A stretch of 64,000 nucleotides of DNA from a virus: the IMG/VR virus record IMGVR_UViG_3300021479_000010, positions 1 to 64,000 of that record, one strand, 5' to 3'. Below the pieces are notes generated by a model. That model saw nothing but the letters and a program-made list of their open reading frames with translations. It was not told the origin of the DNA and did no database searches. Position numbers and translations under genes: made by a program. Positions 20,713 through 46,230 of this stretch are shown piece after piece. Every line of letters begins with the position of its first letter. Within the stretch, counting starts at the first letter, position 1.

Positions 20713-20765
20713 GTCATTCTCCTTAAACTTGTTTAACTGACGCGATTAATTTAGTTTTAGAACGA

Positions 20766-20969
20766 TTGGGCCGTCATACGCCGCGAGCCAAAACCCTCGG
20801 CCTGATCCGGTTTTGGACGGGTCAGGATATGCTAATAGAGGACGACCCAAACTTTGAATTGCGGGGCATATTCCACGCTCTTGTGGGCGGTCACGAGTAC
20901 CCGCTTATTCCCTTTGCTCCAGTCGATTGGAGCTTACCCCTGCGGTTGTAGGTGAAACCCGCCCCGCAA
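20766..20969. ncRNA. candidate structured non-coding element with two multi-stem domains
   Basis: Closing stems 20766-20775/20841-20850 and 20859-20867/20961-20969, each with internal hairpins; no convincing ORF. Confidence 0.4.
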
Positions 20970-21109
20970 ACTTAGTGCTTAAATATACTATACCATATTA
21001 CGAATACCAGAATGGGCATACATGGCACGTGGAAATTTCTTATTGTTCCTATTATGCTGAATAGGGAATTCTGATAATTCCTTAGATATTTTACATTGTT
21101 TGCATATTT

Positions 21110-22132
21110 TCACTTGCAAAATTCCAATAATTTCCCTTCTTTCTGCGCGGCATCCAGTTTCATAAGAACTTCTTCCCACTCTCTCTTTTTAAGCGATCCC
21201 GTCTTGATATCGGGGTTTCCCGTTTCTTTAGCGATGAACTTTTTCATATTCTCAGAACCCGTTGTTTTGATATGCTCTTTGAGACGCTTCAGGAAATCAT
21301 TATATTCGACCGTGTTTGGTTTATCACCGATTATTGCTGGAATATCATTATCGTTTGCAATAGTTTCGGGCGGTTCGGTTGGTGCTGGAGCAGAGGAAGC
21401 TCGCAGATCGTTGTCGAATGGTTTGGCAACGGACCCCGCTTTATTTTGCTCCTGTAGAGCGGATTCCCCAACGCCCGAAGTTTTAGAATTTGCGGGGCGA
21501 CCCCGCTTCCCCGCTTCAAATTTGCCGCTAGCGCTCTGCGTTGCTTGTTCCGAAGCGGCCAATTGCTGGCGAGCCGCGTGTCCAGATGCGGACTTGGTTT
21601 CCTTTGTCTCCCCCGCATCGGTCGGCCCATCGACATCTTCATCCGCAGAAATTGCTAGCATACTGGACAGGGAATATCTTTTGGCATAACTGATGTACGT
21701 GCCCATTTCTTGTGGCTTGGTTGTACCATCTGGGACGAATATGCCGTCATCCTGCTGTACTTCATCTTGAAACTGAAGGCGAGTAGTAACGTAGAGCTTA
21801 CCATCTTTACGAACAAGAGGTTGGGTCAAAGCGATACCCTGCTTTGCAAGTAGAGGAAGCGCCATATTCAGAAGATCGGCCAAATCAGCGTATTTATATT
21901 CATATTCGTATTGGCGACCGTTCTTCTCGCCCCGTACCTTGGCTGTTTTAGACTTATTGACAGTTTTGAATTCGGATTGCGCTTTGGCCAGTGCCTCGGC
22001 GAGTTTTCCAGTTGTTTTCGCTGGCCACTGGTTCGGCCATTGATATCCGCCAATAGAACCATTTCCTGGAATGGAGTTGGTTCCCGTAGGAATATCAAAA
22101 GAAGTATTAATCTGATTTAAAGCAGTGCTCAT
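21110..22132 (-). CDS. ERF-family ssDNA annealing protein
   Basis: LAEALAKAQSEF..YKYADL..GTYISYAKRYSLSSMLAISADEDVDG. Confidence 0.85.
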   Translation of the reverse strand: MSTALNQINTSFDIPTGTNSIPGNGSIGGYQWPNQWPAKTTGKLAEALAKAQSEFKTVNKSKTAKVRGEKNGRQYEYEYKYADLADLLNMALPLLAKQGIALTQPLVRKDGKLYVTTRLQFQDEVQQDDGIFVPDGTTKPQEMGTYISYAKRYSLSSMLAISADEDVDGPTDAGETKETKSASGHAARQQLAASEQATQSASGKFEAGKRGRPANSKTSGVGESALQEQNKAGSVAKPFDNDLRASSAPAPTEPPETIANDNDIPAIIGDKPNTVEYNDFLKRLKEHIKTTGSENMKKFIAKETGNPDIKTGSLKKREWEEVLMKLDAAQKEGKLLEFCK

Positions 22133-22650
22133 TGAATGTGCTCCCATGATTGACCAACGATAGCGCGGTATGCGGTCATAGTAGAAACCCCGTATTTTTC
22201 ACCAATCTTTTTATAGGATAGACTGCGCGGTTCTGCCCGCATCTGCCTAACTAGTTCTTCGGTTAATTTAGAGACAGGATTATCTTCTCCGAACCTATAG
22301 AGCGGATTCATGCGGTCTTTTTTCGCCGCATCTTTCATATTATCGTCTTGTGTTCCCAGAAATAAATGATCAGGATTTACGCAGGCTGGATTGTCACATT
22401 TATGTAGAACGAAATTTCCTTTAGGTATTTCTCCGTGTACTAAAAACCAAGAAACTCTATGTGCTTTCCGATTATACCCCCTAAACCAAATAGTACCATA
22501 TTCCTGCGTGGTAGACCCAATCCACAACCAACAGCCGCTCATTGGTTCTGGACTTACCTTTTTCCAGAATCTTTTTTCTATGGGAATACGCGGCTTAACA
22601 CCGTCATCTTCCATAGACCTAATTCGTGTGTAGGCAATGCTTTCAATCAT
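22129..22650 (-). CDS. HNH homing endonuclease
   Basis: CWLWIG..YG..AHRVSW..VLHKCDNPACVNPDHLFLGTQDDNMKD, C-terminal HTH. Confidence 0.9.
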   Translation of the reverse strand: MIESIAYTRIRSMEDDGVKPRIPIEKRFWKKVSPEPMSGCWLWIGSTTQEYGTIWFRGYNRKAHRVSWFLVHGEIPKGNFVLHKCDNPACVNPDHLFLGTQDDNMKDAAKKDRMNPLYRFGEDNPVSKLTEELVRQMRAEPRSLSYKKIGEKYGVSTMTAYRAIVGQSWEHIQ

Positions 22651-22740
22651 TTGTTAAGAAATAGGGTTAGGCCGGTTGGAGGTCCAGCCTAACCCCGATA
22701 CGGGGTGACGCGCCCCGCAGCCTGACTTCACGTTAAAGGA

Positions 22741-22769: not shown

Positions 22770-24577
22770 CCTACATTTCGCCTTTACAGAGGCATTTCAT
22801 TCTGTATCCAGCCATCTATCAAAACGATCAAGACCTTGACAAAATTTATCCATAAACCACCATACAAACAGCACGAATGGCACTACGAACCATCCGCCCA
22901 ATGCGAGTGCTATCACCATAGCAATTTTGCGTTTGCGGGTCGATCTGCGCCAAATGTATACAAAATCCTTCATTTCGGTTTAATCGGGTTAGACAATAAA
23001 GTTTCTAGTGATTGTCCGCAAATCCGCCAGCCCAATCATCCGGGGAATTGACCCAATCTTTCTCGGCTTTTGCAGGCTGCACCTTTTCCCGTTCACATTC
23101 GTAACAGATTTCAAATCCGCTTCGCATGTCGTAATGCAGCTCATTTCCATGTACCAGACAACGATCTCCTTGCATCGGGTTCTTCTCCTTCCCCGCCATC
23201 CGCGACGGCCTTGTCGTATTCCTGAGATGCTTGTTGTTCTAAAGGACTGGGCAGAACAGATTGACAAATGTTGTCGATGCGGATAAGCGCGTCGTTTGCA
23301 TTTTCTCCATCCCCGACCTCTTCCTCTCCAGAAGCATATCTACGAATCTGTTCCAGTGCCGCGAGCAACGTTTCTTTCTCAGAAAGTGACCCATCTTTTC
23401 TGGGCATTGTTGCCTCCAATCTTGAATAAAGTCTTCAGGGCTCGCGAACTGAATAAAAGGCTATCCATTCCGCAAATGCTTTTGCAGCTCTAGCCCATGT
23501 TGCGGCTGAAACGTTTGCCTTATACGGCCTGAATTTCCTGTTGGCCGTGTTCGCTCGAATCCAAGTGACAAGCCAATCCTGTACTTCATTGGTAGTCAAG
23601 TTACAATATGCCATTACTCCTCCTCAACTAATGGCGTTTTGTAATACACGCCATCAATCCACTTTGCAATCGCTTCCTGCTGTCCGTATGCCGCTAGTGC
23701 GCTGGCATAGGCTATCCAGTCAAACGGGTTATCCGTATCCGGACAAATTGGACACTTAATATTGTTTTTCATATTAGCAACCAAAGCAGTCCTCGCAACA
23801 ATCATCGTGACAGTGACTCGCGGCGAACGCTCCTCGTGCTCTAGCCTCAACATCTGCTTTATAGCAATCTGAATGTCGATTGCAGCCGGGGCGACGATTT
23901 CCATTCTCGTCTATACCCCGATTTGTGCGCGTTTTTATCGCCTTCTGCCCCAACCCCAAACGATATGCTGTCTCCAATGTTTCAATCATGCTGATCTCAG
24001 TCTGCCCTGTCCATTCTGAATAGAGCTGCTCGATTACATCTGAGATTGTGAAATGGCTTTGAAGTAGCTGTGGCATATGAAACTCCTTTAATCAGGGAAC
24101 TTAACTAAGTATCCAGCCAATTGTCGAAACGATCTAGGTTGCTAGATACAGTATCCATTAGCCACCACTGAAATTCAACCAATAGGATTACGGGCCATCC
24201 GATAATCAGCGCCACAATCATAGCAATTTTCCGCTTGTGTGTCGCGCCTTGCCAAATCTCTAGAAACGTCCTGATCATTTCGGATCAGCATGCTCGGCAA
24301 GATGTGCGTCGAACTCTTCGCCGACTTTCTGCCACGTTCGGCACCCTCGCGTGCTTACCCAACCGCACAAACATTCCATCCACGGGCAAACATGCCCGAG
24401 CAGCGCGTGTCCCAGATTATCATAAGCAGCTTCATGTGGTCCGTGCGCTTGCGCGATAATTTCCTTGATATGCGCCATAAAAACCTATTTAAGTGATGTT
24501 ATTAAAGCAATCTCGGTCTTCGCCCTACTTATGAATCCTCGCGATGCCAACTTTCATCTAATGAGAATATAGCACCA

Positions 24578-25270
24578 ATGTCTGCATTGTCAAGAGGTAC
24601 AATGGGAAAAAATGGGCTGCGAAAAATTAATGCATGGGCCTGCCGCCATACGGATCGGCTCCAACACTCCAGAGGAATGTGCAAAAATTGCTATAGCACT
24701 TCTATGCGAAAATCGCCTACTAAAATTCGGGCGTGGAAGTGCGAGCACAGAGATAGACCACACCATGCTAAGGGCTTGTGCGAGGCTTGCTACTGCCAAC
24801 GGGAAACTAACAAAAGAGCTTGGAAATGTGATCACATAGATCAGCCACACGCCGCTCATGGCCTGTGCCAGCATTGCTACGATAAACACCGCAAGGCTAA
24901 ACAGAAGAAATGGCGCGATACAAAAGGACCGGACCATGTTCGTCGCATATACAGAAAGAGCTACTATAAAAATTATTATAAAATGACAATGGAGCAATTC
25001 GAAGAACTTTTTGCCAGACAAGATGGCAAGTGTGCGGGATGCCGCTATATTTTTCGCGACTCTAATGACGAATTGATATGCATTGACCACGATCACGCCT
25101 GTTGCTCCAACGGAAAGAAAACATGTGGTAAGTGTGTTCGGGGGATTCTATGCGATCTTTGCAATCGAATTTTAGGGCAGGGAAAGGATGTGCCAGAAAC
25201 CCTAGAATCTTTAGCTAGATATTTGCGCAATTGGTCTTCTCTCAGAGAACTCGAAGAGCTATTCATATAA
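24578..25270 (+). CDS. endonuclease VII-family protein with three N-terminal Zn-type repeats
   Basis: AW.C.H.D..H...G.C..CY three times; QDGKCAGC..IDHDHACC..CGKCVRGILCDLCN. Confidence 0.85.
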   Translation: MSALSRGTMGKNGLRKINAWACRHTDRLQHSRGMCKNCYSTSMRKSPTKIRAWKCEHRDRPHHAKGLCEACYCQRETNKRAWKCDHIDQPHAAHGLCQHCYDKHRKAKQKKWRDTKGPDHVRRIYRKSYYKNYYKMTMEQFEELFARQDGKCAGCRYIFRDSNDELICIDHDHACCSNGKKTCGKCVRGILCDLCNRILGQGKDVPETLESLARYLRNWSSLRELEELFI

Positions 25271-26120
25271 CATCTTTGCATACTTGTCAATGTATGAAAC
25301 ATCTGCGTTATCAACAACTTGCGCATAGGTGCCCAAAGTAAGACTTTTGCAGGCGTGGCCGACCCGGTAGGCCAGAATTTTCTCTGGTATGCATACCTGA
25401 GACGCTAGGGTTGTTATACAGCCTCTGCGCCAAGCGTGGAACCCGACAGGTTGGACTCCGAGTGAAATCATTACAGGGTCCAATGCCCGCCTACATTCCG
25501 TGGGCCCACCAGGGGCCTCCGGATCGTGTCTTAAAGAAAAATCCCTCCGAGGAGCATCCACGCAACATTTCTCTTAATTGATTGGATACATAAATATCTC
25601 GAAACGCCGAGGATGTCTTAGGGTCTTGGCAATTTCCAAGATACACGCTCTTATTAATCGAGAGTGTTTGCTCCTTTATATCGTTTACTTTTAATGCTAG
25701 GATTTCTCCTATCCTTGCGCCTGTCTCTGCCAACGTTGCCGTAAAAGCTTTCTGTCGATGATCTGCGCATCCCTTGATAACAGTGCGCATTTGGTCAAGA
25801 GTTAGCCAGTCCTGTTGAGTCTTCCTAATCTTTGGCAGTACGGGTGTGGGAAACTCTTTGATCAATCCTTCCCGCTTAGCCTGCCCTAGCAAATTACGGA
25901 GCGTGCCGTGGATATTCTTAACACTGCGGGGCTGTTGTTCTTTTGCGAGGTCGGAAAACACCTGCTGGAGTTGCGCATACGTGATGTCCACAAGCGGACA
26001 ACTACCCAGCCGCGCATTTAGCAAACGGATATGGCTACCCATTGTTGCTTGACTTGCCCTCTTTTTCAGTGGCAAAATCGTTTCTTTCCAACGAGTTGCG
26101 AACTGTTCGAAGGTTTCCAT
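25259..26120 (-). pseudogene. int: tyrosine integrase split by a one-base frameshift near 25505
   Basis: 5' ORF has ETGARIGEILAL and PKT; 3' ORF has FHAWRR, VGH and TYAQ. Removing one G from TGG TGG GCC joins them as WWPTECRRAL. Confidence 0.85.
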
Positions 26121-26154: not shown

Positions 26155-26588
26155 GAGAAATCTTTCTCAAATTGCGCGGATTATCGTATTGTAAAAACAT
26201 TCGTGATCCTGCGATACCAGAAATCTTCGGCATTCGCACATCCTCGTTATTTCACAATACGTGCAAATCCACCGATCTTCGTTGGCGTAGTGATATCGCC
26301 ATCGCCCGCAATGTGGACAGAACGTATCGGGGTGCCATACGTATTTCATTCTAATGTAATCCAGCTACTTAATAAAGTTCTTAGCTTTGGCTTCCTCTTC
26401 GGTCATCCAGATTTCCCGCTGCCATCCGTATGGCAATTCGAGGTCAAGAGTCACGAAAGGAACTTTGCCACCGTAGAGGGATAGATCAATCGCTTCCCAC
26501 GGGCCGTTCCCGATCTTGCGTTGCCCGCTCGTGGGTGTCCAGCGTTCCAAAACTAGGATTGTATTCTTCATTGATTGCTTCGATTAAA

Positions 26589-27233
26589 CTAGTCGCCCCG
26601 CAATTTTTCCAGTTCGGCAATGCGGGAGCGCCTTTTTCGAATTGCTTCGAGCTTGGCCAGCGCCCGATCCGGTAGCTCATCTTTGGCCTTCAGTGTTTCC
26701 GTGAGCGCGGCGATCTCCGTACGAAGGGAGTGCTCATCTACAGCCCATTGTTTATGTACATCCTTTAGTTCCTCTCGCAGCGCGGCGATCTCGTGTCGGA
26801 GCGAGGCGGCGATTTTTGCAAGTGCTTCTCGAACGTTGGCGCGAAATGTAACTTGTTCATTGTTCAGCTCAGCGCAAATGTACCACCCTGCTTCGGCCTC
26901 GACTCGTTGGAGTAATTCGTGATCTTCTGGCGCTGCGGACACGAGCTGCTCGGGAGCGGCGCTTAGGGTGGGGCATGACCCATGGTGTGCCCCTTTCTTG
27001 GTTCGGTAAAACGTCTGTCCTCGCTGAATAAGGCCGCGACACTTAGTACAAAGCATCAGGCTTGGTCCCCTCTCAGGCCGTAGGAGTTTCCCATCTTCAT
27101 CTCTCTCATCCATTCTTACTGTTTCAGGCTCCGGCGCTGGCGGCTGCGGAGTGGAGTGCCCCGGATCAGGGCGATTAATCTGTGATTGCAACTCAGCCAT
27201 TTCTTTTTTGTTCATTCCTTGCGGATGGTTCAC
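26589..27233 (-). CDS. hypothetical protein with Zn finger and coiled coil
   Basis: CTKC..HGSC; repeated LR.EIAAL; strong GGAGG RBS. Confidence 0.55.
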   Translation of the reverse strand: MNHPQGMNKKEMAELQSQINRPDPGHSTPQPPAPEPETVRMDERDEDGKLLRPERGPSLMLCTKCRGLIQRGQTFYRTKKGAHHGSCPTLSAAPEQLVSAAPEDHELLQRVEAEAGWYICAELNNEQVTFRANVREALAKIAASLRHEIAALREELKDVHKQWAVDEHSLRTEIAALTETLKAKDELPDRALAKLEAIRKRRSRIAELEKLRGD

Positions 27234-32438: not shown

Positions 32439-32837
32439 CTAGTTAATAAGGTTCTGTCTCAAATGAGGACACTCACCGTAAAACTGCTTAGATTGATTGC
32501 AGTTATGGCACAATAAGCGGTATCGATCCTTTGGCCAACCATTCTTTTTCAGGAAGCGGTAAGTTCCGTGAGTTTTTCCGACCCGTTTCCGATGTTCGTG
32601 GCCATCATCAAAAATATGATCCAGACACAAAAACTCCTCTTCAGTAATATTGCACCCTCCCGGACATTGGCACTTGTGACCGTAAGCTATTAACATTTCT
32701 TCCCGCAGAGCATCTCGATATCTTTTATGGCTGTCTATGCATTTCTGACATCTGGCTTTTCTCTTAGAAACCGTCACACCGCCGCAGGCACACAACCCCT
32801 TGGCTCTGTTCTTCTGGGCCGTTGTTTGCTTCTTCAA
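32439..32837 (-). CDS. HNH endonuclease
   Basis: YGHKCQC..LCLDHIFDDG..YRLLCHNCN. Confidence 0.75.
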   Translation of the reverse strand: MKKQTTAQKNRAKGLCACGGVTVSKRKARCQKCIDSHKRYRDALREEMLIAYGHKCQCPGGCNITEEEFLCLDHIFDDGHEHRKRVGKTHGTYRFLKKNGWPKDRYRLLCHNCNQSKQFYGECPHLRQNLIN

Positions 32838-34480: not shown

Positions 34481-34510
34481 ATGCGTATTTCATTGAGTTC
34501 TATAATCTAA

Positions 34511-35272
34511 CTAGATTTTGCCCGACGGACTCGGAAAAGCTTGGCCATAATAATATGCGGCCATCGTCGCCTTTGTAGCCGTTATATTTCCTGACAAAGC
34601 CAACTGCGGCTTTGGAGTCGGCTTTACCGTAATTGCGGGGACTTGATAGATGTGTGCAAGCTTCGCCGCAACCCCGCCATTATTAACAAGCGACTTCGGA
34701 TAAGCATATTGTGCGCGGTAGCCATGTTCGTGCTCAATTACGCGGCCCCACAAATAGACTTCCCCGTAAACACGAAGATCATCGGTAGGAGCGTTCTCGC
34801 CATGCTCCGTGTCTGCTTGTGACTTATAGGCGTAGATACCGCATACGCAATGAACACCTTTACAAATAGCGCCCTGCCCCGCAGGATCAGCAATAGACGG
34901 TCCTTTCGGAATCTTGCATTCCGCGCATAGTTTCTCAAGCGGTTTCCATTCTGTACGATTGTTGGACAGCAATTTGTCTGCAAATACCGGGACGCTCCAT
35001 CGTCGCCAGCCAATAATAGGACTGACTAGTGTTTCTTGCGGCTTCGGCAATTTGCGGGGCGTCGGTTCGGCGAGTCCCGTAGACCAGGGATACGCATTCG
35101 TGGTCAGACCCGTAATACTTTGGATGTTACATACATGAGTATTGGGCGTGGTATAGCTCGTCCCGCATAGTACACACATGTATGTAGTTGACGGCATGGC
35201 CATATTAGTCGCCTCCGGCGGGGACAGGTTCTTCGATTCGCTTCGGAGTTTCTGTAGGAATTTCTTCCACAT
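34511..35272 (-). CDS. hypothetical phage protein
   Basis: PIIGWRRW..CVCGIYAY..VYGEVYLWGRVIEHEHGYRAQYAYP, a pattern recurrent in phage proteins. Confidence 0.6.
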   Translation of the reverse strand: MWKKFLQKLRSESKNLSPPEATNMAMPSTTYMCVLCGTSYTTPNTHVCNIQSITGLTTNAYPWSTGLAEPTPRKLPKPQETLVSPIIGWRRWSVPVFADKLLSNNRTEWKPLEKLCAECKIPKGPSIADPAGQGAICKGVHCVCGIYAYKSQADTEHGENAPTDDLRVYGEVYLWGRVIEHEHGYRAQYAYPKSLVNNGGVAAKLAHIYQVPAITVKPTPKPQLALSGNITATKATMAAYYYGQAFPSPSGKI

Positions 35273-35524: not shown

Positions 35525-37138
35525 TTAATTTATATTAGCTCCGCTATTCGAAATGTAATTATTCATCGGCCATTTATCATTTCCAGCCTTAGTTCCATTG
35601 CTCAAAATGATATTTCCCGCAAACGAAGAATTGCCTGTCCAACAGCCGGGCACGAGCGTGGAATAATTCGCTTCAACTGTTGTTGCACAGTTGTTAACTC
35701 CGCCGCCTGTACTCCAAACAGGATATGTCCCCGCAGAAACGATATTGTTCGTAAAATTGATGTCCGATGTTTGCGCAACACCGAGAGCGTTATTCGCCGG
35801 GGGTCCACCGATCAGAAGGAACCCGTGTCCGGTTGATCCCGCTTGCGGAGCCCATTGCGACAAGAACAACGAATTGTGATCGAATGAGACATCGTGCATA
35901 ACAACCGGCGTGGATACGGGGTCGTACAGAGACGAAATCTGCATTAGGAAATTACCGGGAGTATTTTCACCTGTAAACTGTAAATCCGCGAATACATTGT
36001 CATGAATCGAATAACCGTAACAAGCAGCAGGCCACGCGCCGTTATCACTTTTCCCGCACGCAACTTGCATTGCGTTTGAAGTATGCGAGATTCGGTTAAA
36101 TCGGACAGTTACATCGGTAACCGCGCAGATCGGACAAGTACCAGGATTTTTGGCTGTAAGTAGTATTGCAAATCCGTTTTGAGTGTAGCCTGCCCACGCG
36201 CCGCGCATTATGTTGTTCGCAACCAAACAGCGGACACAGTTCTTCATCTCCACTATATTCTTTACAATCCATGCACACTTTCCACCGGGACATTTGCTAT
36301 TAACAGATGCGGGGACAAATGATGGGTCGCCGGGGTTCCACGAATCTGGCTTATTGAAGGTATTGTTCGTAATCGTAACATCGGTCGGATTGAATGTCGC
36401 AGTTCCACCACCTGCAAGGATGTTCTCGCCAGATGCCTCGATAAAGTTGTTGTCGATGAGAATGTTGTGATCCTGAACGATTGTACTTAGCCCGAAGTTA
36501 ATACCTTGAGCATCCCCGCAAGTTCCTACAATTGCGAGACAATGAAACCCCGCAAGATAGCTATTGATAATACCTATGTTATAAGCATTACTTAGCTCAA
36601 AACCCCGCACAGTTTCATCTTGACCATTCCCATGAATATAGCTTCGGTCAAATATGAGATCGTGAGCGCCCGAGCCGGGCGTTACGAGATTGTAAACCAC
36701 CCCCGACCCCGTAGTTCTAAGAATCTCAAATCCTACAATGCGGACGAATGCTCCGCCATGAATCCCCGCACCCGAGGAGTTAATAACAATCTTTGGCAGG
36801 GAGTATTGCAGGGGATTCAGCCGCGTACCCTCAACGGGCAATACGCCAGATGACCAAATTGTAATCCAATGCTGGGCGTCGCAGTTCAATGTCGTGGGAA
36901 GCTGTAGAGTTCCTGTCCAAACATTTGCGGGGTCCACTAGGAATGTATCGCCGCACACTGCACCATTCAGTGCTGCTTGCAGGTTATCGGTCGGTCCTAC
37001 GATCTTAGGAGCATTTGGAGACGGTGTGTTGGCAACCGATGTCGCCATAGTTGTTCGAGGAAGTTCGGCGGGGCCATCGTATGTCGATTGTCCATATGCG
37101 GACAAAGCCGCGCAAATTAAGAATAAGGGAAGCTTCAT
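35525..37138 (-). CDS. exported right-handed beta-helix protein
   Basis: Signal peptide, YDGPAELPR, NLQAALNGA.CGDT, N/I/G-rich beta-helix repeats. Confidence 0.7.
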   Translation of the reverse strand: MKLPLFLICAALSAYGQSTYDGPAELPRTTMATSVANTPSPNAPKIVGPTDNLQAALNGAVCGDTFLVDPANVWTGTLQLPTTLNCDAQHWITIWSSGVLPVEGTRLNPLQYSLPKIVINSSGAGIHGGAFVRIVGFEILRTTGSGVVYNLVTPGSGAHDLIFDRSYIHGNGQDETVRGFELSNAYNIGIINSYLAGFHCLAIVGTCGDAQGINFGLSTIVQDHNILIDNNFIEASGENILAGGGTATFNPTDVTITNNTFNKPDSWNPGDPSFVPASVNSKCPGGKCAWIVKNIVEMKNCVRCLVANNIMRGAWAGYTQNGFAILLTAKNPGTCPICAVTDVTVRFNRISHTSNAMQVACGKSDNGAWPAACYGYSIHDNVFADLQFTGENTPGNFLMQISSLYDPVSTPVVMHDVSFDHNSLFLSQWAPQAGSTGHGFLLIGGPPANNALGVAQTSDINFTNNIVSAGTYPVWSTGGGVNNCATTVEANYSTLVPGCWTGNSSFAGNIILSNGTKAGNDKWPMNNYISNSGANIN

Positions 37139-37706: not shown

Positions 37707-38588
37707 TGTCGCCTTCAGTATTCTAGCCAAAGTTCCACAGATTCGTGTTTCTCAATGGCCTCCAATAATTCCAGAGCGCCTTCAATGTTGGCATCAGCCA
37801 ATCCTTGTAAATATGGTACTTGGTTTCGCCCGAAAGTTTGCCGATGTTCAAGGCCATATCTGTCACGCAGTACGAACTTGAGAGCATCCGGCAGTGATTC
37901 AGCCGGGCGTTTGGCGGGCTCCCACATCAAATTTGCGCTCATAGCTCCTCCATTTGTCCAGATACGGACAGCTCCCGCCCCGCAATATCGTATCTGCGTA
38001 TCCGTATAACCCTTCGGTCAAGTTCCTGCTTTACAGCTTCGGTATGCTGGTGATTCAGCCACGCAAATAAAAGTAACTCTTGTAATTCCATACCAGGGCG
38101 CAATTTGATGATTAGCATATGCGCGGCCCTCCAAGCCGCCCCGTATAATCTGGTTTAACTAATTGAATCTAACAAGTTTTGAACGCTCTCCAAGTCGTCG
38201 CGCCAGTCGGGTGCTTGTTCTTCTCAGAAACACCAAGGATCACAGTCTTCGGCATATTTTGCCCAACCCCGCATAGTTTTGACTGCATCGACAAGCTTTG
38301 TGATTTGTTCGTCTTTCGTCATTGTCGCCCCGCATCTTAGAAAACTGTTCGGTCAAGTATACCAAATGTCGCCCAAACTTCTGTGATTGTCAAGCTTAAA
38401 TTAGTCCTCTCGCTTCGCTTTTCGTACAGCTTCTTCGGCAGCCTGCCATAGGGGACCGCTGTACTTCAATTCACAATAGTGATTAAGGAGATTCTCTAGT
38501 GCCCTGAGCAAGTCAGGAGCCGCATCTCGGATGTGATCCTCTTGTCGTTCGGCTTTGTATACCATTAAACGCCTCCAAACTTTATTGT

Positions 38589-39041
38589 CTAGATAACTCT
38601 ATCAGGTTCTCCGAGTAGCGTTCTTTCCTCTAGCAGTTCGGCTAATCGTCGCTCAGAGAATTTAATATGTGATCGCAAATCTTCAATTTTCCAATCTAAT
38701 TGTCGCAAGTGTCTCTGTTTATTAGGCTTAGCGTCCTTTCGTACCCACCATTGTTCGCTGATTCCACCGATAGGGACGTGAATTACATCGCAGTCGTCGT
38801 ATCGGTCGCATTCGTCTCGGTCAGTTTTGCGGAAATCATCCAAGCAACCAAGGAATTCCGCTTCGGCTAGTTTTTCCAAAGATACGCCATCCATCGAAGG
38901 ATCACGCCAATAGGTATCAGTTCCGAATAAGCCATATCCTCTGTCTTGGATGATGGCTAATCCGTGCCGACACCACGCGCCGGATGAGTATCGGAAAATC
39001 ATGTTCGGTCTAATGTCGCTGAGGTTCATGTCGCCCCGCAA
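38589..39041 (-). CDS. hypothetical protein
   Basis: 150 aa ORF ending at the junction site 38580. Confidence 0.55.
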   Translation of the reverse strand: MRGDMNLSDIRPNMIFRYSSGAWCRHGLAIIQDRGYGLFGTDTYWRDPSMDGVSLEKLAEAEFLGCLDDFRKTDRDECDRYDDCDVIHVPIGGISEQWWVRKDAKPNKQRHLRQLDWKIEDLRSHIKFSERRLAELLEERTLLGEPDRVI

Positions 39042-39234: not shown

Positions 39235-39726
39235 TTAGGCTATCTCGCTTTCTTTCATTAGTTTAGCATAATCGAAAGACTTTACGGCCTCGCGCCATTT
39301 GTTGCTAAGTTCCTTACGGGCAATCCAACCGATTACTTCGGCCATTGCAGCGGTCTGCCGCGCAACCAAGAAAAGACTTGCCTTGGGCATCTCAGGAAGG
39401 CTAGCACCGAATGTCGCCTGGGACATTAGAATGAGTTTGGCAGCTTGGCCGACTGAGAATGATGCGCGGCGTTCGCCTCTGTGTTGCCTTTCGTTGGCCG
39501 TCTCCTGCCCTAATAGCTTGGCTAAATCATCGTGCCAGCTAACATCCTGCGCGAAGTCGCGCAAGCACACGCCGTCATCGTTCGGCCCCGCAGCTTTATA
39601 TGCGCGGTCAATCGCTTCGCGGAAGTCACACCAGAGAGTATCAATTTGCTGTTTCGTTTTGGTCATTGTCGCCTCGTTTTTAACGTCCTGTCCGGACGAA
39701 TTGTAAACCTGTTTGATCATGCCCAT
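39235..39726 (-). CDS. hypothetical protein
   Basis: 163 aa ORF in the leftward small-gene run. Confidence 0.5.
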   Translation of the reverse strand: MGMIKQVYNSSGQDVKNEATMTKTKQQIDTLWCDFREAIDRAYKAAGPNDDGVCLRDFAQDVSWHDDLAKLLGQETANERQHRGERRASFSVGQAAKLILMSQATFGASLPEMPKASLFLVARQTAAMAEVIGWIARKELSNKWREAVKSFDYAKLMKESEIA

Positions 39727-40040
39727 TAATTAAGTTTCGGTTCGCTGTATGGTTCGATGTTAATGATATTGTACCACGCAAAGGTGATTAGGTCGCCCCA
39801 CTCCATAGGCAGAAACAGCGGAGTATTGCGAAGGAATCCCGTATATTTGCCCTTACTGGCCGCGGTAACTTGGACCCACATACGCTCCCCGCCTTCGAAT
39901 CCTTCCGCCTCAAATACAAGCTTGACCGATTGACCGGGCAAAATGTGCTTGCGGTCGTAATCGTTTGGCAGTTCGAAAGTAACAGCAGGAGCTATGGCGT
40001 AATCTACGATTGTAATGTCGCTAGTCATTCTTGCCTCCAA
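39726..40040 (-). CDS. hypothetical protein (DUF2314-like ERMWV motif)
   Basis: PGQSVKLVFE..GERMWVQV..YTGFLRNTP..GDLITF. Confidence 0.5.
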   Translation of the reverse strand: MEARMTSDITIVDYAIAPAVTFELPNDYDRKHILPGQSVKLVFEAEGFEGGERMWVQVTAASKGKYTGFLRNTPLFLPMEWGDLITFAWYNIINIEPYSEPKLN

Positions 40041-40416: not shown

Positions 40417-41037
40417 AGTATTGCATAACTGCGGGGCGCGTGTCAAGGCTTTTATTAGCCTTGATTTTCAAGCACTTGCAAGGCTTCCCGCTCAATGTCG
40501 CTATCAAACTTAGCTAATTCCTCATCATCTGATAGCTGTCCAGATGCGGACGCCGCAGGAGCCGCGCAGTTCAAATGGAACAGCGGCGTTCCTTGCCAGT
40601 CCATACTTACTAGGTCGCCATCGTTCATAGGTGCCCCGCAGTTCGGGCAAATGTCGCGGGAATACATGCGGTTTGCCCAGTTCAAATTACGGCGTGTTTC
40701 CCAAGTTTTCATTACAGTCTCCCTTCGTGGAACTGTGCAATAATCTCTTTCATGCGTGCTTCGGTGAGCCGCGCATCCGTCAAGAGAATCACGTATTCGA
40801 CTAGAGTAAAGTACATGTCAGTATCCTCGCATATTCAGATTTGATTGTCAAGCATTATTTATGGTTGCAATCGAGTGGCCGCGCAATTATCATAGAGATG
40901 CGGGGAAAGCTTGACAATGGCGGTCATTCGGAGGCATAATCCGTGTTCAGATGCGGACAAAATCTGTCGATCCGCGCAAGTTGTTGAAAACAGGGCAAAA
41001 GAAAATGCTTGACAAATTTCCCCGCATTCAGTAAGAT
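40417..41037. promoter_or_regulatory. divergent promoter region
   Basis: TTGACA boxes at 40446(-), 40851(-), 40911(+, CATAAT) and 41009(+, TAAGAT, 17 bp spacer); gene orientation switches here. Confidence 0.65.
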
Positions 41038-41059: not shown

Positions 41060-41230
41060 ATGAAGCTACTTGATATGCAAGGCAAGGTTTACTTCGCGGA
41101 TCAAGCCCTTGACGTTGCGCGGCAGTTACAGGAATCTGATCCTGACTGGAAATATGAGGCCGAAATCAAAGGCGACTATGGCCGCGTCAATGTCTACGAT
41201 GAGAATGGCCAGTTGCTAGGTGCATTCTAG
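41060..41230 (+). CDS. small hypothetical protein
   Basis: GGAGG RBS; stop codon lies in the junction site at 41227. Confidence 0.65.
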   Translation: MKLLDMQGKVYFADQALDVARQLQESDPDWKYEAEIKGDYGRVNVYDENGQLLGAF

Positions 41231-41268
41231 TTTGTTCAATCGAGTTAAACAAGAATCTTGGAGGAAAT

Positions 41269-41436
41269 ATGTGGAAACTTGGATACGAAGACGCGGTACA
41301 GTTCAAGCCCAGCATGTACGAAGACGGGCCAGTGAGCATTATCGGGATAGCTGCCTACGATTATCGCCAAGGATACAAGGCAGGCAATCGAGACCGCATC
41401 TGGGCAAACGGCAATCGTCCGCCACAAGCAAACTAG
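41269..41436 (+). CDS. 55 aa hypothetical protein
   Basis: Manual translation MWKLGYEDAVQ..; GGAGG RBS; TAG stop lies in the site at 41433. Confidence 0.6.
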   Translation: MWKLGYEDAVQFKPSMYEDGPVSIIGIAAYDYRQGYKAGNRDRIWANGNRPPQAN

Positions 41437-41460
41437 TTTGATGAGCGAGATTAAACCAGA

Positions 41461-41748
41461 ATGACAAACCAAGACTATCTCGATTCGCTTGATTCCATGT
41501 TCGGCGGTCCCGACGAGACCGTGATTGAATGCCGGACTACAAAGGTTGTAACCGTCCGCAAAGAGCATCTTTGCATGTGCCCGGCCCACACTCCGCTGCA
41601 TACGATCAAAGCCGGAGAACAGGCAGGCATGGAACGGGCTATCGCTGATGGGGCTTGGGGCACCTGTTACGTCTGCTTACCTTGTCTGGAATCGTGGGCA
41701 AGACATTGTGACAAGCAAGAGGACTACTGCAATGCGAAACTAGTTTAA
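41461..41748 (+). CDS. small Cys-rich hypothetical protein
   Basis: Ends KLV-stop in the site at 41740. Confidence 0.6.
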   Translation: MTNQDYLDSLDSMFGGPDETVIECRTTKVVTVRKEHLCMCPAHTPLHTIKAGEQAGMERAIADGAWGTCYVCLPCLESWARHCDKQEDYCNAKLV

Positions 41749-41756
41749 GGAGCCTT

Positions 41757-41951
41757 ATGACATTAGCGATATGCGACTATTGCGGGGTCGTGATTCTTAG
41801 TGCTCAGTTGAAGGAATACATAGATGGGCGTGTGTATCACGCAGGTTGCGCCAAGAATCCTAATGGCACAACAGTCACTCGCGCAGGCGAATGCACATGC
41901 AACAACGACAGCGCAAAATGGCATTTTCCCGGATGCCCGAAACTAGTTTAA
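41757..41951 (+). CDS. small Zn-finger-like hypothetical protein
   Basis: Ends KLV-stop in the site at 41943. Confidence 0.6.
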   Translation: MTLAICDYCGVVILSAQLKEYIDGRVYHAGCAKNPNGTTVTRAGECTCNNDSAKWHFPGCPKLV

Positions 41952-41984
41952 TCGAGCAAGTTAATAAAGAATTGGAGGGGTTAT

Positions 41985-42427: not shown

Positions 42428-43066
42428 ATGACCGAAGTAACCAAAGACGCTATTACGATTCTATCGCGTTGGTCTGGTAAAGTATTGTACTCCTGCGCGA
42501 AAGCAACGATCAAAGAAGCGGTATTACAGGCAATTAAAGACGGCGCGGACCTGTCCGGCGCGAACCTGTCCGGCGCGAACCTGTCCGGCGCGAACCTGTC
42601 CGGCGCGGACCTGTCCGGCGCGGACCTGTCCGGCGCGAACCTGTCCGGCGCGGACCTGTACGGCGCGAACCTGTCCGGCGCGGACCTGTCCGGCGCGAAC
42701 CTGTCCGGCGCGGACCTGTCCGGCGCGAAAGAAATTCCAGTCTTGGCAGCCGCGCAATCCTTGATTGTGCCCGAATCTGGCCCGTTCTTTGGATGGAAGA
42801 AATGCAAGAATGGGGTTATTGTAAAGCTTGCCATTGGAACAAATGCGAGGCGCAGTAACGCGACTGGGCGAAAATGCCGCGCAGAATATGTCAAGGTCTT
42901 AGAAGTAATTGGCGCGGAAGTAGGCATTAGCGAACATGACGGTAAAACTGAATACCGCAAAGGCGCGATTGTTCGATGCGACAAATGGAATGAGGACAGA
43001 TGGACAGAATGCGGGGGCGGGATTCATTTCTTCTTGACTCGCATCGAAGCCGAGAATTACAGCTAG
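42428..43066 (+). CDS. pentapeptide-repeat protein with DUF5758-like C-terminus
   Basis: 12 GA(D/N)L(S/Y) repeats; [39 protein letters not shown]. Confidence 0.85.
42542..42727 (+). repeat. 15-bp tandem repeat GGCGCGRACCTGTMC, 12 copies
   Basis: Near-perfect DNA tandem array. Confidence 0.95.
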
Positions 43067-43112: not shown

Positions 43113-43141
43113 TTGACAGGTGCCGCGCATTTTGCTATTGT
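43113..43141 (+). promoter_or_regulatory. sigma70-type promoter
   Basis: TTGACA-17-TATTGT; CCGCGCA in the spacer; TGTTC-N6-GGACA 9 bp upstream. Confidence 0.6.
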
Positions 43142-43504
43142 ATCTGTATTGGAGGATACACAAATGGACTGGAATACAGCGAACACGGAAGCAACGAAGC
43201 TCTGGTACAAATGGGTTAGCTCGCGCCCTGCAGTAGGCATTGACGGATACTTGCAACAAAGCCGCGATATGGCCGACTACAAGCTGTATGATTTGGACAG
43301 AATCCACTCATCCATGCTGCAAGAGTACCGATACATTCGCCAAGGAACAAGCCGCGCAACTCCCGGATTAATCTCAGAAGTAAAGGGAGAATTGATTCTC
43401 CTAGGCAAGATTCGCAAGGCATTGGCAAAAGACACAGACGCGGGTTCGCGCCCACGTTGCAACATTGGCTCAATTGAATTGTGCCAATGCACTTTCCTGC
43501 CGCA

Positions 43505-43527
43505 AAACCCCCTTATTTAGGGGGTTT
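43505..43527. terminator. hairpin terminator
   Basis: AAACCCCCT-TATTT-AGGGGGTTT. Confidence 0.6.
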
Positions 43528-43617
43528 CGTTACAAATTATGGTTTCAACAAATGGTGAAATATGCCGTTTGATTGAAACCTGTTTAAGTAGTAGGATTAA
43601 ACCAGAATGAGGACAGC

Positions 43618-45551
43618 ATGAGTGCAGACAATGGAATCAAGACGCATGCGCGGCCTCGCAATTTGGGAGAGAGCACATACAGTCAGCAATACAGAAATGG
43701 ATTGACAGCGTATATGGCAAATGATTGGACAATCGAAACCATGCGAATTGTCAATGAGTTAACGCCGGATATTCACGGCAGGGCATTTGATCCTGACTGG
43801 TTTCTATTGCGCCAACGTTTCGAGCAAATGGAAGAGAAATACAGCGAGATGCTGGAATTACTGGAAACCATTGAGAACGATACCAAGCTTGTTCCTAACT
43901 GGCTGTGGGTTCGGATACAATCTGCTGTCAAAAGAGCCAAGGAGCCCGGCAAATGACATTTGACGAATGGTGGGATAATGACGGCAAATACTACGATCCT
44001 GACTGGGATGATATTCCGTGGTACGACAAGCGCAAATCATTGGCTGAATACGCTTGGCATCGCGCACTCGAAACGCGCGGCAGTCCGCCAGTGGACATCG
44101 TAACGAATGCCGGATTTGGACCTGATCACGCGTTCAAACGCCAGCCCCGCAAATTAGTAGACTTAGACAAGGATTTAGGCATATGAAGAAGCAAATCAGA
44201 AAGCTATCGCCTTGGGCAAAGATGCTGCAAGCCGCGAAGCGCAAAACCAGCTTGCGATTGACTGCCAGTGAAGTGCAGACCTTTGTGTATCTCCGCAAGC
44301 CAAAAGACTAAGGATTTAGAATGCCTGCTGGCATAAACCGCGATTGCTCAGTGTGCATGAATACGGGATTGCGCAATGGTGCGCCTTGCGACGTATGTCG
44401 AGACGCGCCCCGCAAGCCAGAGGAATGGTGCAAGTGGCGAGACGCGGACAAAGGCATGATCAAACCAGAGCACAGCACAGGATACAATCGACAATGGGAG
44501 AATGAGACATTGGCCGAATGGATCGCACGATGCGGCCTCGCAACTGTGGAAGCGATTCTCAAGGCAGAACGCAAATGAGCGATACATACGACCTCGCATG
44601 TCATGACTGTAAAGCTAGCCTATGGATAGGTCAGAGTGGCAGCAGTCCGTGGTGTTTCTATACAGGCGAACCAGAGACAATGCAGGCGCTTGGGCTGTTC
44701 TTCTGGGCGCATCGTGGACATCGGCTAGAGTTTAATGAATGCCAATTACTCGAATACGTGGCAGATTTAGGCTCAGCATAGACGTGTTGAGCGAAGGAAT
44801 GACCATTGCCAGCCCCGCCAACCCCATTAGGTTTGATGACGGCAAGCTTGGCTACTTCGCTGATCGTCATTGGCACGTACAGAGCGAACCCGGCAATTGG
44901 ATAGTTGCGGACCTCGCCGCGCATAATCTCATGGAATACATGCTATCGAAGGGAATGTTTGAATGAATCTATCAGGCTATTTAGACCACGAAGAGGATTG
45001 CACTTGTCTTGATTACCATGACAGGTTTTTGTCCGCAAGTGGACAAGCCGATGGACCGCAATTCGCCCCGCAATGTGTGAAGGACATCTGGAATGAGGAA
45101 ATGGTATTCAAGATGACAAGGGGAACATGGGCGGACCTAATCGACGGCAAACCAATTGGCCGTTGCTACGTCATGGCCGATGGTGCGATACGAGTAGAGC
45201 GCAACAAGCTTGTCCGCTGTACGTCATGCGGATTCCAAGGCACAAACGATCAATTCCTTGCCGGACATCTGGCCTCAGTCTGCCCGAACTGCAAGAGCGA
45301 TTACACGGTCCAAAACGCCCCGCAATTCCCAAAGGACAATCAAGACTAAGATGAGCTATTATTCATTCCAATGGTGGATTCGATGGTTCGTGCCGTTGCC
45401 AATCCTTATCCGAATATCAAAGGCGACGTTTGGCCGTCATCATGTCTGGTATCAAGACGATCATATAAGCCTTGAAACACATCCGTTTGATCGTGCCGAA
45501 GTGACCGATGCAGACCGCAAAGCAATGCAAGACTTGGACCGATACATCTAG
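43618..45551 (+). other. run of about eight overlapping small hypothetical ORFs
   Basis: Several ATGA-coupled ORFs, many Cys-rich; bracketed by junction sites at 43579 and 45548/45661. Confidence 0.55.
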
Positions 45552-46230
45552 TAATTAAATAATTAACAATTGACTGCAAAGCATTGACCAATTGAGTAAC
45601 AGAACTAACCACGCGAATTTTCCGCTGGCATTTTCGCCCATCCAATCCCAACCGGGCGAACTAGTTTAATCTGTTTACTCAACCAAGAATCGAAGCAAGT
45701 CCTTTGTTTTCAATGCACATCAGCGTCTCTGCTATGATCTGCCGATTTCCTAGGTGCTAGAGGAGGATAGACGTAAAGGCACTACTTTCATAGACTTAGG
45801 CCCCGTGACTTACCCCACGTGGGTGGGCCACCTTGCGCGAGGCTTGGGTGGCTCCAAAGCATCCTTTTCTCAGATATATGCCCCGGTATTGTTTTCCTAT
45901 AAAAAGGGTCCCTATTTGGTCACAGACCCCCGGTATATTTTCCCCTATGCGTGATTTATCTTGACAAAGTACCTTGTATATGAGATTATGTGTTTGGGAG
46001 GATTTATGAAGACATTTGCTATCGTAGTTTTGTTCTCGATCTCAGCGTTCGGGAAGAACCAACCGGGGTTTTCCACCAAGCCATCTGTCGTTATTGTTCG
46101 ACCATCGATCCGCAACTCGGTCCCGGTCTCTGGATATGTCCGCGTTCCGTCCGCGCCGAATACTGGCAGCTACAAAGGTACCTCTAATCCAAAACATCCC
46201 CGGTAGCTCGCTGAACCGTAGAGCTTTATG

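Follow-up and report, generated by a model that had tools for sequence, protein, structure and literature searches.

A 33-base near-palindrome repeated at early gene junctions of an uncultured, temperate 96-kb phage looks like a fixed joint for gene swapping

The closest known systems to the junction element described here appear to be the PeSLs of T4 and the ESAS of Cluster K. PeSLs are promoter-early stem-loops of T4-type phages, and exchange at them is ascribed to recombination between repeats (Arbiol et al. 2010, PMC2839356; PMC4122927). ESAS are the extended start-associated sequences of Cluster K mycobacteriophages (Pope et al. 2011, PMC3203893; PMC11373665; PMC12699233). The stoperators of Cluster A mycobacteriophages, with gp71 of L5, are a further comparison (PMC9283540, PMC6550527).

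The element comes from an uncultured temperate phage whose record, IMGVR_UViG_3300021479_000010 (G000), is complete at 96,206 bp; the window, that is, the whole stretch of DNA analysed, is its first 64 kb. The near-palindrome follows the pattern AAACTAGTTTAA-N9-TTAAAC(A/C)AG(AAT/TTT) and occurs in the window as 17 strong and 5 weaker copies, all within 20.7–45.7 kb. The array claimed in a preliminary description of this DNA is real: a search with its pattern and up to three mismatches gave 16 matches against 0.36 expected from shuffles, and every copy that it listed was found. Scanning the complete 96,206-bp record for dyads returned 17 sites at a cut-off of 8 mismatches in the 24 arm positions (3.3 in shuffles) and 12 at the stricter cut-off of 6 (0.1 in shuffles). 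These sites were confined to 20,725–45,690, with none in 1–20 kb or 46–96 kb. A PWM scan, as the description had proposed, added weaker copies at 22972, 33519, 34485 and 38577, and the copy at 33685 was added by reading the sequence. The sites are listed here, with their matches in two other genomes, G001 and L090.

20725–20757, minus: junction site between the erf–ssb gap and ssb; 3 arm mismatches; TAA stop in the left arm, AGGAG and ATG 12 nt past the right arm
22972–23004, minus: weak junction site; PWM 16.9
24080–24112, minus: junction site; RBS GGAG within the right arm
24481–24513, minus: junction site; the plus-strand EndoVII HEG starts 65 nt away
26348–26380, minus: junction site; ATG overlapping the right-arm end
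26563–26595, minus: junction site; right arm TCAATGAAG, ATG inside
32860–32892, minus: junction site; occupies the first slot upstream of polA, with orthologs in G001 (25759r) and L090
33127–33159, minus: junction site; spacer shared 9/9 with G001r 25914
33519–33551, minus: junction site; second-type right arm (ACAATAGATGAT ttaATG); duplicate of 33685
33685–33717, minus: junction site; second-type right arm; spacer 8/9 against G001r 26566
34485–34517, minus: weak junction site (PWM scan), immediately upstream of an HNH_3 HEG
38147–38179, minus: junction site (pattern and dyad scans)
38375–38407, minus: junction site (dyad scan)
38577–38609, minus: weak junction site (PWM scan)
39705–39737, minus: junction site (dyad scan)
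41224–41256, plus: junction site, first of the rightward early operon
41430–41462, plus: junction site; spacer 9/9 against G001r 34929, in the opposite arm in G001
41737–41769, plus: junction site; left arm perfect, right arm poor with ATG inside
41940–41972, plus: junction site; matches G001r 37061 at 33/33 (40/40 with the RBS) between flanks at random identity
42369–42401, plus: junction site; left arm and spacer match G001r 37744 at 20/21, but the right arm differs
43576–43608, plus: junction site (pattern and dyad scans)
45658–45690, plus: last junction site; the early-operon terminator follows about 540 nt further on

As the description had stated, the copies sit at gene junctions and are missing from the structural genes and the 4–20 kb replication genes. 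They occupy 22 of the 59 junctions in the array versus none of the 53 in the other two scored blocks (4–20 kb and 47.6–62 kb), and the median intergenic gap is 28–47 nt with a site versus 1–3.5 nt without one. Two divergent early transcription units enclose all copies. Those of the plus arm all lie between consensus sigma-70 promoters (40.9–41.0 kb) and a strong terminator (46.23 kb), and no junction site is present at the early promoters themselves (40889–41037 checked).

40889–41037, no single strand: divergent early promoters, sigma-70-type, three in the span
40911–40940, plus: early promoter, TTGACA-18-CATAAT
40917–40889, minus: early promoter, sigma-70-type
41009–41037, plus: second early promoter, TTGACA-17-TAAGAT
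46230–46264, plus: intrinsic-terminator-like hairpin that ends the rightward early unit

The left arm is 12 bp long and near-invariant. It usually provides the stop codon of the upstream gene, as had been noticed before: the stop falls inside it at 14 of the 17 strong sites (TAG at offset 4–5, TAA at offset 9). The right arm is looser and of a few types (two are spelled out above, at 26563 and 33519), and the earlier observation that it contains or adjoins the next RBS or ATG also holds, with the downstream start lying within the arm or 0–28 nt past it. The 9-bp spacer between the arms differs from copy to copy. At 33519 and 33685 the duplicated junction brackets an ORF of 53 codons. The inverted-arm geometry that had been proposed is borne out in the consensus, a true dyad (AAACTAGTTTAA / TTAAACTAGTTT) with the outer ACT/AG and inner TTTAA/TTAAA blocks kept, but not in equal conservation of the arms: only the transcription-upstream arm is strongly conserved, most clearly in the relative G001. 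The element is not an RNA hairpin. The sites have a minimum free energy of 0 to −5 kcal/mol, 8.06 of 12 arm positions pair (8.46 in a shuffled-arm null), and 75 of 98 arm deviations lack compensation.

One close full-length relative was compared, G001 (PolA 78%). It carries about 16 sites in the same region, with a near-invariant left arm and a loose or second-type right arm, the stronger arm being upstream in 15 of the 16. The motif is also present in L090 and is absent from the relatives at 46–49%; G002 and G003 lack it. Spacer matches of at least 8/9 between G000 and G001 number six, versus 0.05 expected, and the reciprocal-best site pairs, also six, are collinear. The slot pattern is based on six or seven site pairs, chosen by spacer identity, so that collinearity is its only independent feature. 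In paired sites 8–12 of 12 left-arm positions are identical, and in most of them 3–6 of 12 in the right arm; homology between orthologous sites often stops at the spacer/right-arm boundary. The site itself reaches 33/33, while its flanks (15–28 of 75 identical) are at the random level of about 25%. ORFs between orthologous sites show no relation at E≤1, and nucleotide-level alignment covers 11% of the array versus 43–63% of the replication-core and late-structural blocks. Slots are conserved, then, while genes turn over.

These comparisons support the view that junction sites behave as cassette boundaries between G000 and its one close relative, and the copies look like fixed joints for gene swapping. 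This much of the cassette array envisaged in the preliminary description survives. Of all the boundaries of G001-conserved genes, however, about 5 of 16 fall at a site by a hand count, close to the base rate of site-bearing junctions, so exchange exclusively at sites is unsupported.

At roughly even odds (about 0.5), we read the repeat as a lineage-specific junction element of the early accessory-gene region, probably a DNA site at which a protein docks and which also serves as a joint for cassette exchange via the phage's RecA/Erf. Its protein binding, regulatory effect and recombination pathway are what we infer. The element would work as duplex DNA and would most likely dock a phage-encoded sequence-specific DNA-binding protein, which may act on both divergent early operons, e.g., by damping or shutting off read-through. 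Since the left arm and spacer remain in fixed map slots while the intervening genes are replaced, the copies may act as exchange joints. The likely route is homologous recombination over the 21–40 bp common to equivalent slots, carried out in co-infected cells by RecA, Erf and SSB of the phage itself. Common stretches of 21–28 bp are on the short side for RecA/Erf recombination. The recombination kit of the phage comprises RecA, Erf, SSB, EndoVII and a sub-threshold PD-(D/E)XK-like match.

5731–6723, minus: RecA, bacterial-type
21110–22147, minus: Erf single-strand annealing protein
4482–4865, minus: basic 127-aa ORF, candidate site-binding protein, as a lead only

The 127-aa ORF has no nuclease domain, contains two HEG-type zinc-finger-like modules, and is found in G001 and missing from G002 and G003; its predicted fold is uninformative. 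Searches of the phage proteins for sigma-70, HTH_3 and RHH_1 domains found none.

It is possible, although rather unlikely, that the sites are regulated internal promoters, as Cluster K ESAS are now read: one weak sigma-70-type promoter per cassette (TAGTTT-17 bp-nAGAAT), overlapped by the dyad as operator. Adephagia ESAS are read as a SigA-like promoter plus inverted repeat (PMC11373665). Here both −10 invariants are kept at positions 28–33 (A29 in 15 and T33 in 16 of 17 sites), and a −10-like nAnnnT hexamer (e.g., TAGAAT, TATAAC, CATAAT, TATGAT) stands at offset 28 in 57% of 37 sites of both right-arm classes, so a promoter component is possible. The matching −35 is poor, however (mean 2.2 of 6 matches), and a promoter scan flags no site, while the real early promoters are near-consensus TTGACA/TATAAT. 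Additionally, start codons at 26348, 26563, 41430, 41737 and 33127 lie in or directly past the putative −10, and a transcript starting about 7 nt downstream would miss them. A phage sigma factor was searched for and none was found.

A more doubtful proposal makes the sites recognition or homing sites of free-standing HEGs, with cleavage in co-infecting relatives and repair leading to cassette replacement. At least eight HEG-like genes lie in the window, four of them in the array.

22129–22650, minus: HNH_3 homing endonuclease, weak C-terminal HTH match
24578–25270, plus: EndoVII-type homing endonuclease whose N-terminal part has three H(P/T)DR..GLC..CY modules
32439–32837, minus: HNH-like ORF, called by eye, in the slot between site 32860 and polA
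33965–34480, minus: HNH_3 homing endonuclease

Three of the four are within 65 nt of a site, but with a base rate of 37% this adjacency is not significant. The HNH-like ORF, which gave no HNH match in a Pfam search, has a G001 homolog at a different location that likewise adjoins sites, and the 127-aa ORF, a nuclease-less paralog of the zinc-finger-like modules of the EndoVII HEG, is common only to the motif-bearing G001. Homologs of the EndoVII HEG, on the other hand, also occur in motif-less G003, and homing is disfavoured because intronless homing yields variable conversion tracts, not precise boundaries.

It is quite improbable that the signal acts on mRNA, as an A/U-rich unstructured leader between cistrons that enhances translation, provides a ribosome standby site or is processed by RNase. 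The location between stop and start, the A/U-rich, unstructured sequence, the polarity with transcription (above all in G001, with 15 of 16 sites) and the start contexts supplied by right-arm types would fit. Dyad symmetry and strict C/G positions, however, are meaningless in unpaired RNA, the best-conserved part lies at the 3′ end of the upstream gene, 25–45 nt from the next start, and the counterpart of site 41430 sits in the opposite arm of G001.

25259–26120, minus: tyrosine integrase, frameshifted near residue 205–215, not linked to the sites

Hardly credible are crossover sites of an integron-like system worked by this integrase or by host XerC/D, even though the arms are inverted around a short spacer, the integrase does exist, as described, within the array, and orthologous homology often ends at the spacer/right-arm boundary like hybrid sites after site-specific exchange: the integrase, the sole tyrosine recombinase of G000, is frameshifted while the sites are intact, its homologs in motif-less G002 and G003 mark it as a family-wide lysogeny gene, spacers are unlike between copies, many right arms are degenerate or swapped for an unrelated type, hairpin potential for an attC-like fold is absent, and searches for a serine recombinase or HUH transposase in the phage found none. 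The integrase is not likely to be the agent working the sites, and the integrase-served crossover of the preliminary description is not supported.

Compared with known systems, the element resembles attC and loxP, FRT and dif in that inverted arms flank a spacer where cassettes meet; here, however, folded-strand potential is absent, the 9-bp spacers are not identical, the second arm is not kept up, and the integrase is broken and its distribution does not follow that of the sites. Stoperators, the alternative raised earlier, are nearer in spirit. They too occur in many copies in short intergenic spaces, overlap stops and starts and are co-oriented with transcription in both arms of a temperate phage. 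The specifics fail: stoperators are 13-bp asymmetric sites for a monomeric repressor, occur genome-wide and match the early-promoter operator, whereas here a 33-bp dyad with a 12-bp core is restricted to the early region, is absent from the early promoters and has no repressor found in the phage.

PeSLs are likewise short conserved repeats amid small non-essential early ORFs in hyperplastic regions, and they bound insertions and replacements between relatives. A PeSL, however, combines a strong sigma-70 promoter with a terminator hairpin; the junction sites have no hairpin, and their promoter-like match is weak at best. We know of no counterpart in PeSLs to copy-specific spacers held in map order.

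Like ESAS, the sites lie shortly before starts as imperfect inverted repeats whose spacer varies, restricted to the non-structural part of the genome in a single orientation; the left repeat is nearer to consensus than the right, and the departures lend no support to RNA pairing. The lineage restriction also has a parallel in the subcluster-specific ESAS consensus. Sequence and host are unrelated, the 13-bp SAS partner is missing here, and ESAS have good −35/−10 hexamers that the junction sites lack. Finally, an ESAS moves together with the gene family downstream of it, whereas in this phage the site keeps its place and the genes are replaced.

The 33-bp near-palindromic repeat at the early-gene junctions is genuine: its occurrence departs strongly from chance, and the way it has evolved is informative. 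The motif proposed in the preliminary description gave 16 matches at no more than 3 mismatches, compared with 0.36 expected, and the observation was borne out in every particular. Read as a dyad, the site has the consensus AAACTAGTTTAA-N9-TTAAACTAGTTT. A dyad scan of the whole 96,206-bp IMG/VR record (G000, rated complete by CheckV) found 17 copies at up to 8 mismatches in the 24 arm positions, compared with 3.3 in shuffled sequences, and 12 compared with 0.1 at a cut-off of 6 mismatches. All of these copies are confined to 20,725–45,690, inside the window, which covers the first 64 kb of the record. A PWM scan and direct reading added five weaker ones (22972, 33519, 33685, 34485, and 38577).

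The placement of the sites likewise agreed with what had been described. The left arm, upstream in the direction of transcription, carries the stop codon of the preceding ORF in 14 of the 17 strong copies, and the next start codon lies inside the right arm or at most 28 nt past it, often behind a GGAGG. Sites occupy 22 of the 59 junctions in the array but none of the 53 in the 4–20 kb and 47.6–62 kb blocks. Where a site is present, adjacent genes are separated by approximately 28–47 nt; where none is present, they mostly overlap or abut. Conservation is dyad-symmetric, with outer ACT/AG blocks and inner TTTAA/TTAAA blocks, and no further conserved element was found within 45 nt on either side.

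In G000 alone, polarity with respect to transcription is weak (12 of 17 copies, not significant). It is clear in G001, a close relative, where the transcription-upstream arm mostly has 0–1 mismatches and the other arm 4–10, a pattern seen in 15 of 16 copies. Thus, the near-invariant core of the element is AAACTAGTTTAA. The right arm takes the following forms:

TTAAACMAG(AAT/TTT), followed by the RBS
TCAATGAAG, which contains the ATG
ACAATWKATGWATTAATG, a second class

Genes of G000 point leftward from about 40.7 to 4.1 kb and rightward from about 41.0 kb. The leftward arm encodes SSB, Erf, a tyrosine integrase, PolA, a primase-helicase, a sliding-clamp-like protein, RNA ligase, and a bacterial-type RecA, as well as many small ORFs with no assigned function. 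Transcription signals and the genes of a nucleotide-pool module are as follows:

40.89–41.04 kb, both strands, divergent near-consensus sigma-70 promoters (TTGACA-18-CATAAT, TTGTCA-17-TATGAT, TTGACA-17-TAAGAT)
46,230–46,254, plus strand, strong intrinsic-terminator-like hairpin at the end of the rightward early unit
4153–4485, MazG-like pyrophosphohydrolase
4862–5242, dATP/dGTP diphosphohydrolase N-terminal domain (PF18909)
5252–5734, nucleoside 2-deoxyribosyltransferase

The nucleotide-pool module (4153–5734) may hint at modified DNA bases. The phage-encoded RecA is full-length and of bacterial type (5731–6723; Pfam RecA, E=2e-127), and G000 also encodes Erf and SSB and gave a PD-(D/E)XK-like match that was weak and below threshold. 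A di-haem oxidoreductase/peroxidase-like protein (14159–15478; PF06537, E=5e-35), an unusual phage auxiliary gene, is located amid the replication genes. The gap between erf and ssb (20760–21105, minus strand) is unusually long and not present in G001; it contains a short fragment of a CxxC ORF, along with a GC-rich segment in which GCGGGGC pairs at long range with GCCCCGC (MFE −83 kcal/mol, z = −2.5), and gave no Rfam match at E<=1. Two 8-mers are strongly over-represented over the whole of G000 (e.g. at 4014, 7616, and 9136), GCCGCGCA (52 vs 6 expected) and TTGCGGGG (61 vs 17 expected), and both are also in excess in G001. The idea of an archaeal virus, which came from the TATA-like TTTAAT, was dropped because of the consensus sigma-70 promoters, the strong GGAGG RBSs, and the bacterial RecA and PolA.

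A different palindrome, TGTTCAGATGCGGACA, lies at 40944–40959, just past the −10 of the early promoter at 40911–40940, and by its sequence looks like a conventional operator. It is one copy of a 16-bp palindrome unrelated to the sites, TGTCCR-N4-YGGACA, which has 44 copies at no more than 1 mismatch in the whole of G000, almost always inside coding sequence, from 4245 to 63744 in the window and on to 95688 in the full record. Exact TGTCC-N6-GGACA occurs 13 times in G000 and 21 times in G001, compared with about 0.15 expected.

PolA homologs define a family of 93–98 kb phages. Among the contigs that carry them are two of 95.8 kb (P0002, PolA 81%) and 98.0 kb (P0006, 78%); we searched four full records of relatives (G001–G004) for the motif. 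G001 (93,865 bp, PolA 78% identical) has about 16 copies in the equivalent early region, and the motif is absent from G002 (49%), G003 (46%), and G004 (38%). One copy is found in the 1.6-kb metagenome contig L090 (PolA 92% at the amino-acid level), in the first slot upstream of polA. An unbiased search for dyads and 8-mers in G002 and G003 yielded no CTAGTTTAA-type motif. Instead, these two distant relatives, of 93–94 kb, have palindromes of their own between stops and RBSs: GTMCGGAAAACGKAY in G002, with about 60 copies (L101, e.g. 10131–10149), often fused to GGAGG, and GTCCGGAACCGGAC in G003, with 22 GTCCG-N4-CGGAC genome-wide (L103, e.g. 8266–8300). Palindromes at gene junctions are therefore a recurrent feature of these phages, the CTAGTTTAA type being confined, among the relatives examined, to the branch of G000, G001, and L090.

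Queries with PolA, a 268-aa nuclease-like ORF, and RNA ligase retrieved only G001 as a further close relative in IMG/VR. There are no close cultured relatives (best PolA identity among GenBank phages, 38.5%), and the metagenome contigs of relatives are short and come from soil, peat, and fen. One 50% PolA homolog is on a contig binned with an Acidobacteria MAG; 401 sampled genomes from the phylum of this fen MAG contained no arrays, only single matches at chance level. An exact-pattern scan of IMG/VR gave 76 single matches, all chance except G001. EBPR siphovirus 1 was rejected as a relative: this phage lacks the motif, and the 91% nucleotide match to its gp3 is spurious, produced by 15-nt tandem repeats in the G000 gene for a pentapeptide-repeat and DUF5758 protein (42428–43066).

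The comparison with G001 identified the array as the hyperplastic region of the genome. Nucleotide alignment covers 11% of 20.7–46.3 kb, compared with 43% of the replication core and 63% of the late structural region, and most of the small array ORFs have no counterpart in G001. Nevertheless, sites can be matched between the two phages by their spacers: in six cross-genome pairs the spacers are identical at no fewer than 8 of their 9 bases, compared with 0.05 pairs expected from shuffled spacers. Six reciprocal-best pairs are perfectly collinear, and since they were chosen by spacer identity, only the collinearity is independent evidence. With positions in G001 given as G001r coordinates, they are:

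32860 in G000, 25759 in G001r
33127 in G000, 25914 in G001r
33685 in G000, 26566 in G001r
41430 in G000, 34929 in G001r
41940 in G000, 37061 in G001r
42369 in G000, 37744 in G001r

Flanks of the paired sites are identical at 15–28 of 75 positions, which is random, compared with up to 33 of 33 in the site itself; at 41940 the identity extends to 40 of 40 and includes the RBS. Homology typically runs through the left arm and spacer and is lost at the right arm or just within it. Between orthologous sites, the two genomes have ORFs of differing number and length, without similarity at E<=1. In the first slot upstream of polA, each of three genomes has its own insert: G000 an HNH-like ORF, G001 a 96-codon ORF, and L090 other DNA of about 700 nt. 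A 53-codon ORF in G000 is flanked by two near-duplicate junctions, as would be expected had the ORF been inserted through exchange at a junction. Additionally, site 41430 is in the rightward arm of G000 and its ortholog in the leftward arm of G001, and an 85-codon zinc-ribbon gene by the divergent promoters points leftward in G000 (40455–40712) and rightward in G001 (G001r 35920–36108). These switches show rearrangement around the quasi-palindromic sites and around the promoter region.

The slot pattern rests on one full-length close relative, G001. The proposal that the sites are cassette boundaries held, as sites stay while the genes between them change. By a hand count, boundaries of genes conserved with G001 coincide with a site in about 5 of 16 cases, which is about the base rate. 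Restriction of exchange to the sites is thus unsupported.

Our preferred reading, to which we assign a probability of roughly 0.5, is that the sites are a junction element of duplex DNA, probably protein-bound, which doubles as a joint for cassette exchange. A putative phage protein would bind the site as duplex DNA, and the sites would mark fixed slots in the early operons. Cassettes would be exchanged by the phage's homologous recombination (RecA, Erf, SSB, EndoVII) on the 21–40 bp common to equivalent slots. In phages, turnover is far faster in accessory regions than among core genes, and it is only partly understood how operons survive it. A compact joint made of a stop codon, a slot-specific spacer, and the context of the next start, which stays while neighbouring genes are replaced, bears on this question.

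Only tentatively do we propose an addressed system of cassette exchange, in which every early-gene junction would be labelled by a slot address composed of the 12-bp invariant arm and the copy-specific 9-bp spacer. Relatives that co-infect would swap the contents between two matching addresses, position for position, with the joint itself supplying stop and start signals. Catalysis might be by RecA/Erf; exchange might also be triggered by HEG-derived proteins that recognise the invariant arm and bind or cleave DNA.

It is doubtful that the sites are regulated weak promoters of the ESAS type. A −10-like nAnnnT is present at positions 28–33 in 57% of 37 copies from G000 and G001, but the matching −35 hexamer is poor (mean 2.2/6), several start codons fall inside or directly past the −10-like hexamer, and no site was among the promoter-scan predictions. 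Taken together, the hexamer and the starts make a promoter conceivable, if geometrically awkward.

As for proteins that could read the duplex-DNA junction element, no sigma-70, HTH_3, or RHH_1 domain was detectable in G000, and Pfam and PHROG screens of about 70 ORFs revealed no repressor. The conserved early proteins encoded close to the promoters are acidic or of the zinc-ribbon type, and none shows a clear DNA-binding fold. One lead is a basic 127-residue ORF (4482–4865) with two H(P)DR..GLC..CY modules, present in G001 and absent from G002 and G003. The EndoVII-type homing endonuclease gene (HEG) product encoded inside the array has three such modules N-terminally, to which the ORF is 43% identical; the remaining homologs are N-terminal parts of EndoVII and GIY-YIG endonucleases. 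Judging by this similarity, we infer a nuclease-less copy of a HEG DNA-binding module, which is a candidate, as a lead only, for the protein that reads the invariant arm. A fold predicted from the single sequence was unusable (pLDDT 41), with Atlas matches at chance level.

Free-standing HEG-like genes are unusually dense, with at least eight in the window:

8154–8585, HEG-like gene
11152–11505, HEG-like gene
22129–22650, HEG-like gene
24578–25270, HEG-like gene
32439–32837, HEG-like gene
33965–34480, HEG-like gene
46671–47405, HEG-like gene
63126–63671, HEG-like gene

Two are of the EndoVII class, four are HNH/HNH_3 (one with AP2), one is HNH-like by eye only, and one is a weak, sub-threshold GIY-YIG-like match. 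That the sites themselves are homing-endonuclease targets we consider unlikely.

An RNA hairpin or cruciform was ruled out: individual copies fold weakly (MFE 0 to −5 kcal/mol), arms pair at 8.06 of 12 positions compared with 8.46 when right arms are shuffled among copies, and 75 of 98 departures from the consensus are uncompensated. A signal for translation or processing at the mRNA level is improbable.

The preliminary description had proposed an integron-like mechanism possibly served by the integrase inside the array (25259–26120, minus strand), and this was not supported. In G000 the enzyme is split by an apparent frameshift near residue 205–215, both halves being 50–62% identical to an intact 293-residue G001 protein with Arg, His-x-x-Arg, and Tyr motifs. 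It is the sole tyrosine-recombinase match in G000, and searches of this genome for serine recombinases (resolvases) and HUH/Y1 transposases gave no matches. Homologs are present in the motif-less relatives G003 (42% over 284 residues) and G002 (29%). Spacers are 9 bp and not 6–8 bp, with a within-family identity of typically about 3/9. In G001, and at 33519 and 33685, the right arm either departs from the consensus at 4–10 of 12 positions or has ACAATWKATG... in its place. With the classical core-site and attC properties of spacer, second arm, and hairpin missing, crossover sites of this integrase are highly improbable, and the integrase is most plausibly the lysogeny gene of the family rather than the array's enzyme. 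The case cautions against assuming that an integrase inside such an array acts on it.

Among known systems, integrons differ in the single-strand hairpin folding of attC, which the sites do not share (pairing not above null), and in a dedicated integrase that co-occurs with its sites. The core sites loxP, FRT, and dif have two conserved inverted arms, whereas here the right arm is loose or replaced, and an overlap of 6–8 bp identical between partners, whereas the 9-bp spacers differ. The stoperators of Cluster A, raised earlier as the main alternative, also fail as a model: no site copy is located at the 40.9–41.04 kb promoters, where the palindrome is TGTTCAGATGCGGACA, and the site is not 13-bp asymmetric.

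In anatomy, the sites are most like the ESAS of Cluster K (PMC3203893, PMC12699233, PMC11373665), whose function was still unverified in 2025 according to the same reports. Both lie upstream of starts and consist of imperfect inverted repeats around a variable spacer; both are limited to the non-structural part of the genome, with a better conserved left repeat and no support for RNA pairing (PMC3203893). Unlike ESAS, the sites have no 13-bp SAS partner GGGATAGGAGCCC, only generic GGAGG RBSs, and they persist while downstream genes differ, whereas ESAS travels with a downstream gene family. If many relatives confirm the pattern, ESAS-like repeats would gain a testable evolutionary role.

In evolutionary behaviour, the sites are most like the PeSL of T4-type phages: they occur in a hyperplastic region, and gene replacements between relatives, here one full-length relative and L090, are bounded by the element. 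PeSL are defined by a promoter and a stem-loop (PMC2839356), and the sites have neither a strong sigma-70 early promoter nor a stem-loop terminator inside the repeat. Mini-circles that arise from exchange between repeats are a further mark of PeSL. Confirmation in many relatives would thus extend the PeSL idea to an element with no promoter or hairpin.
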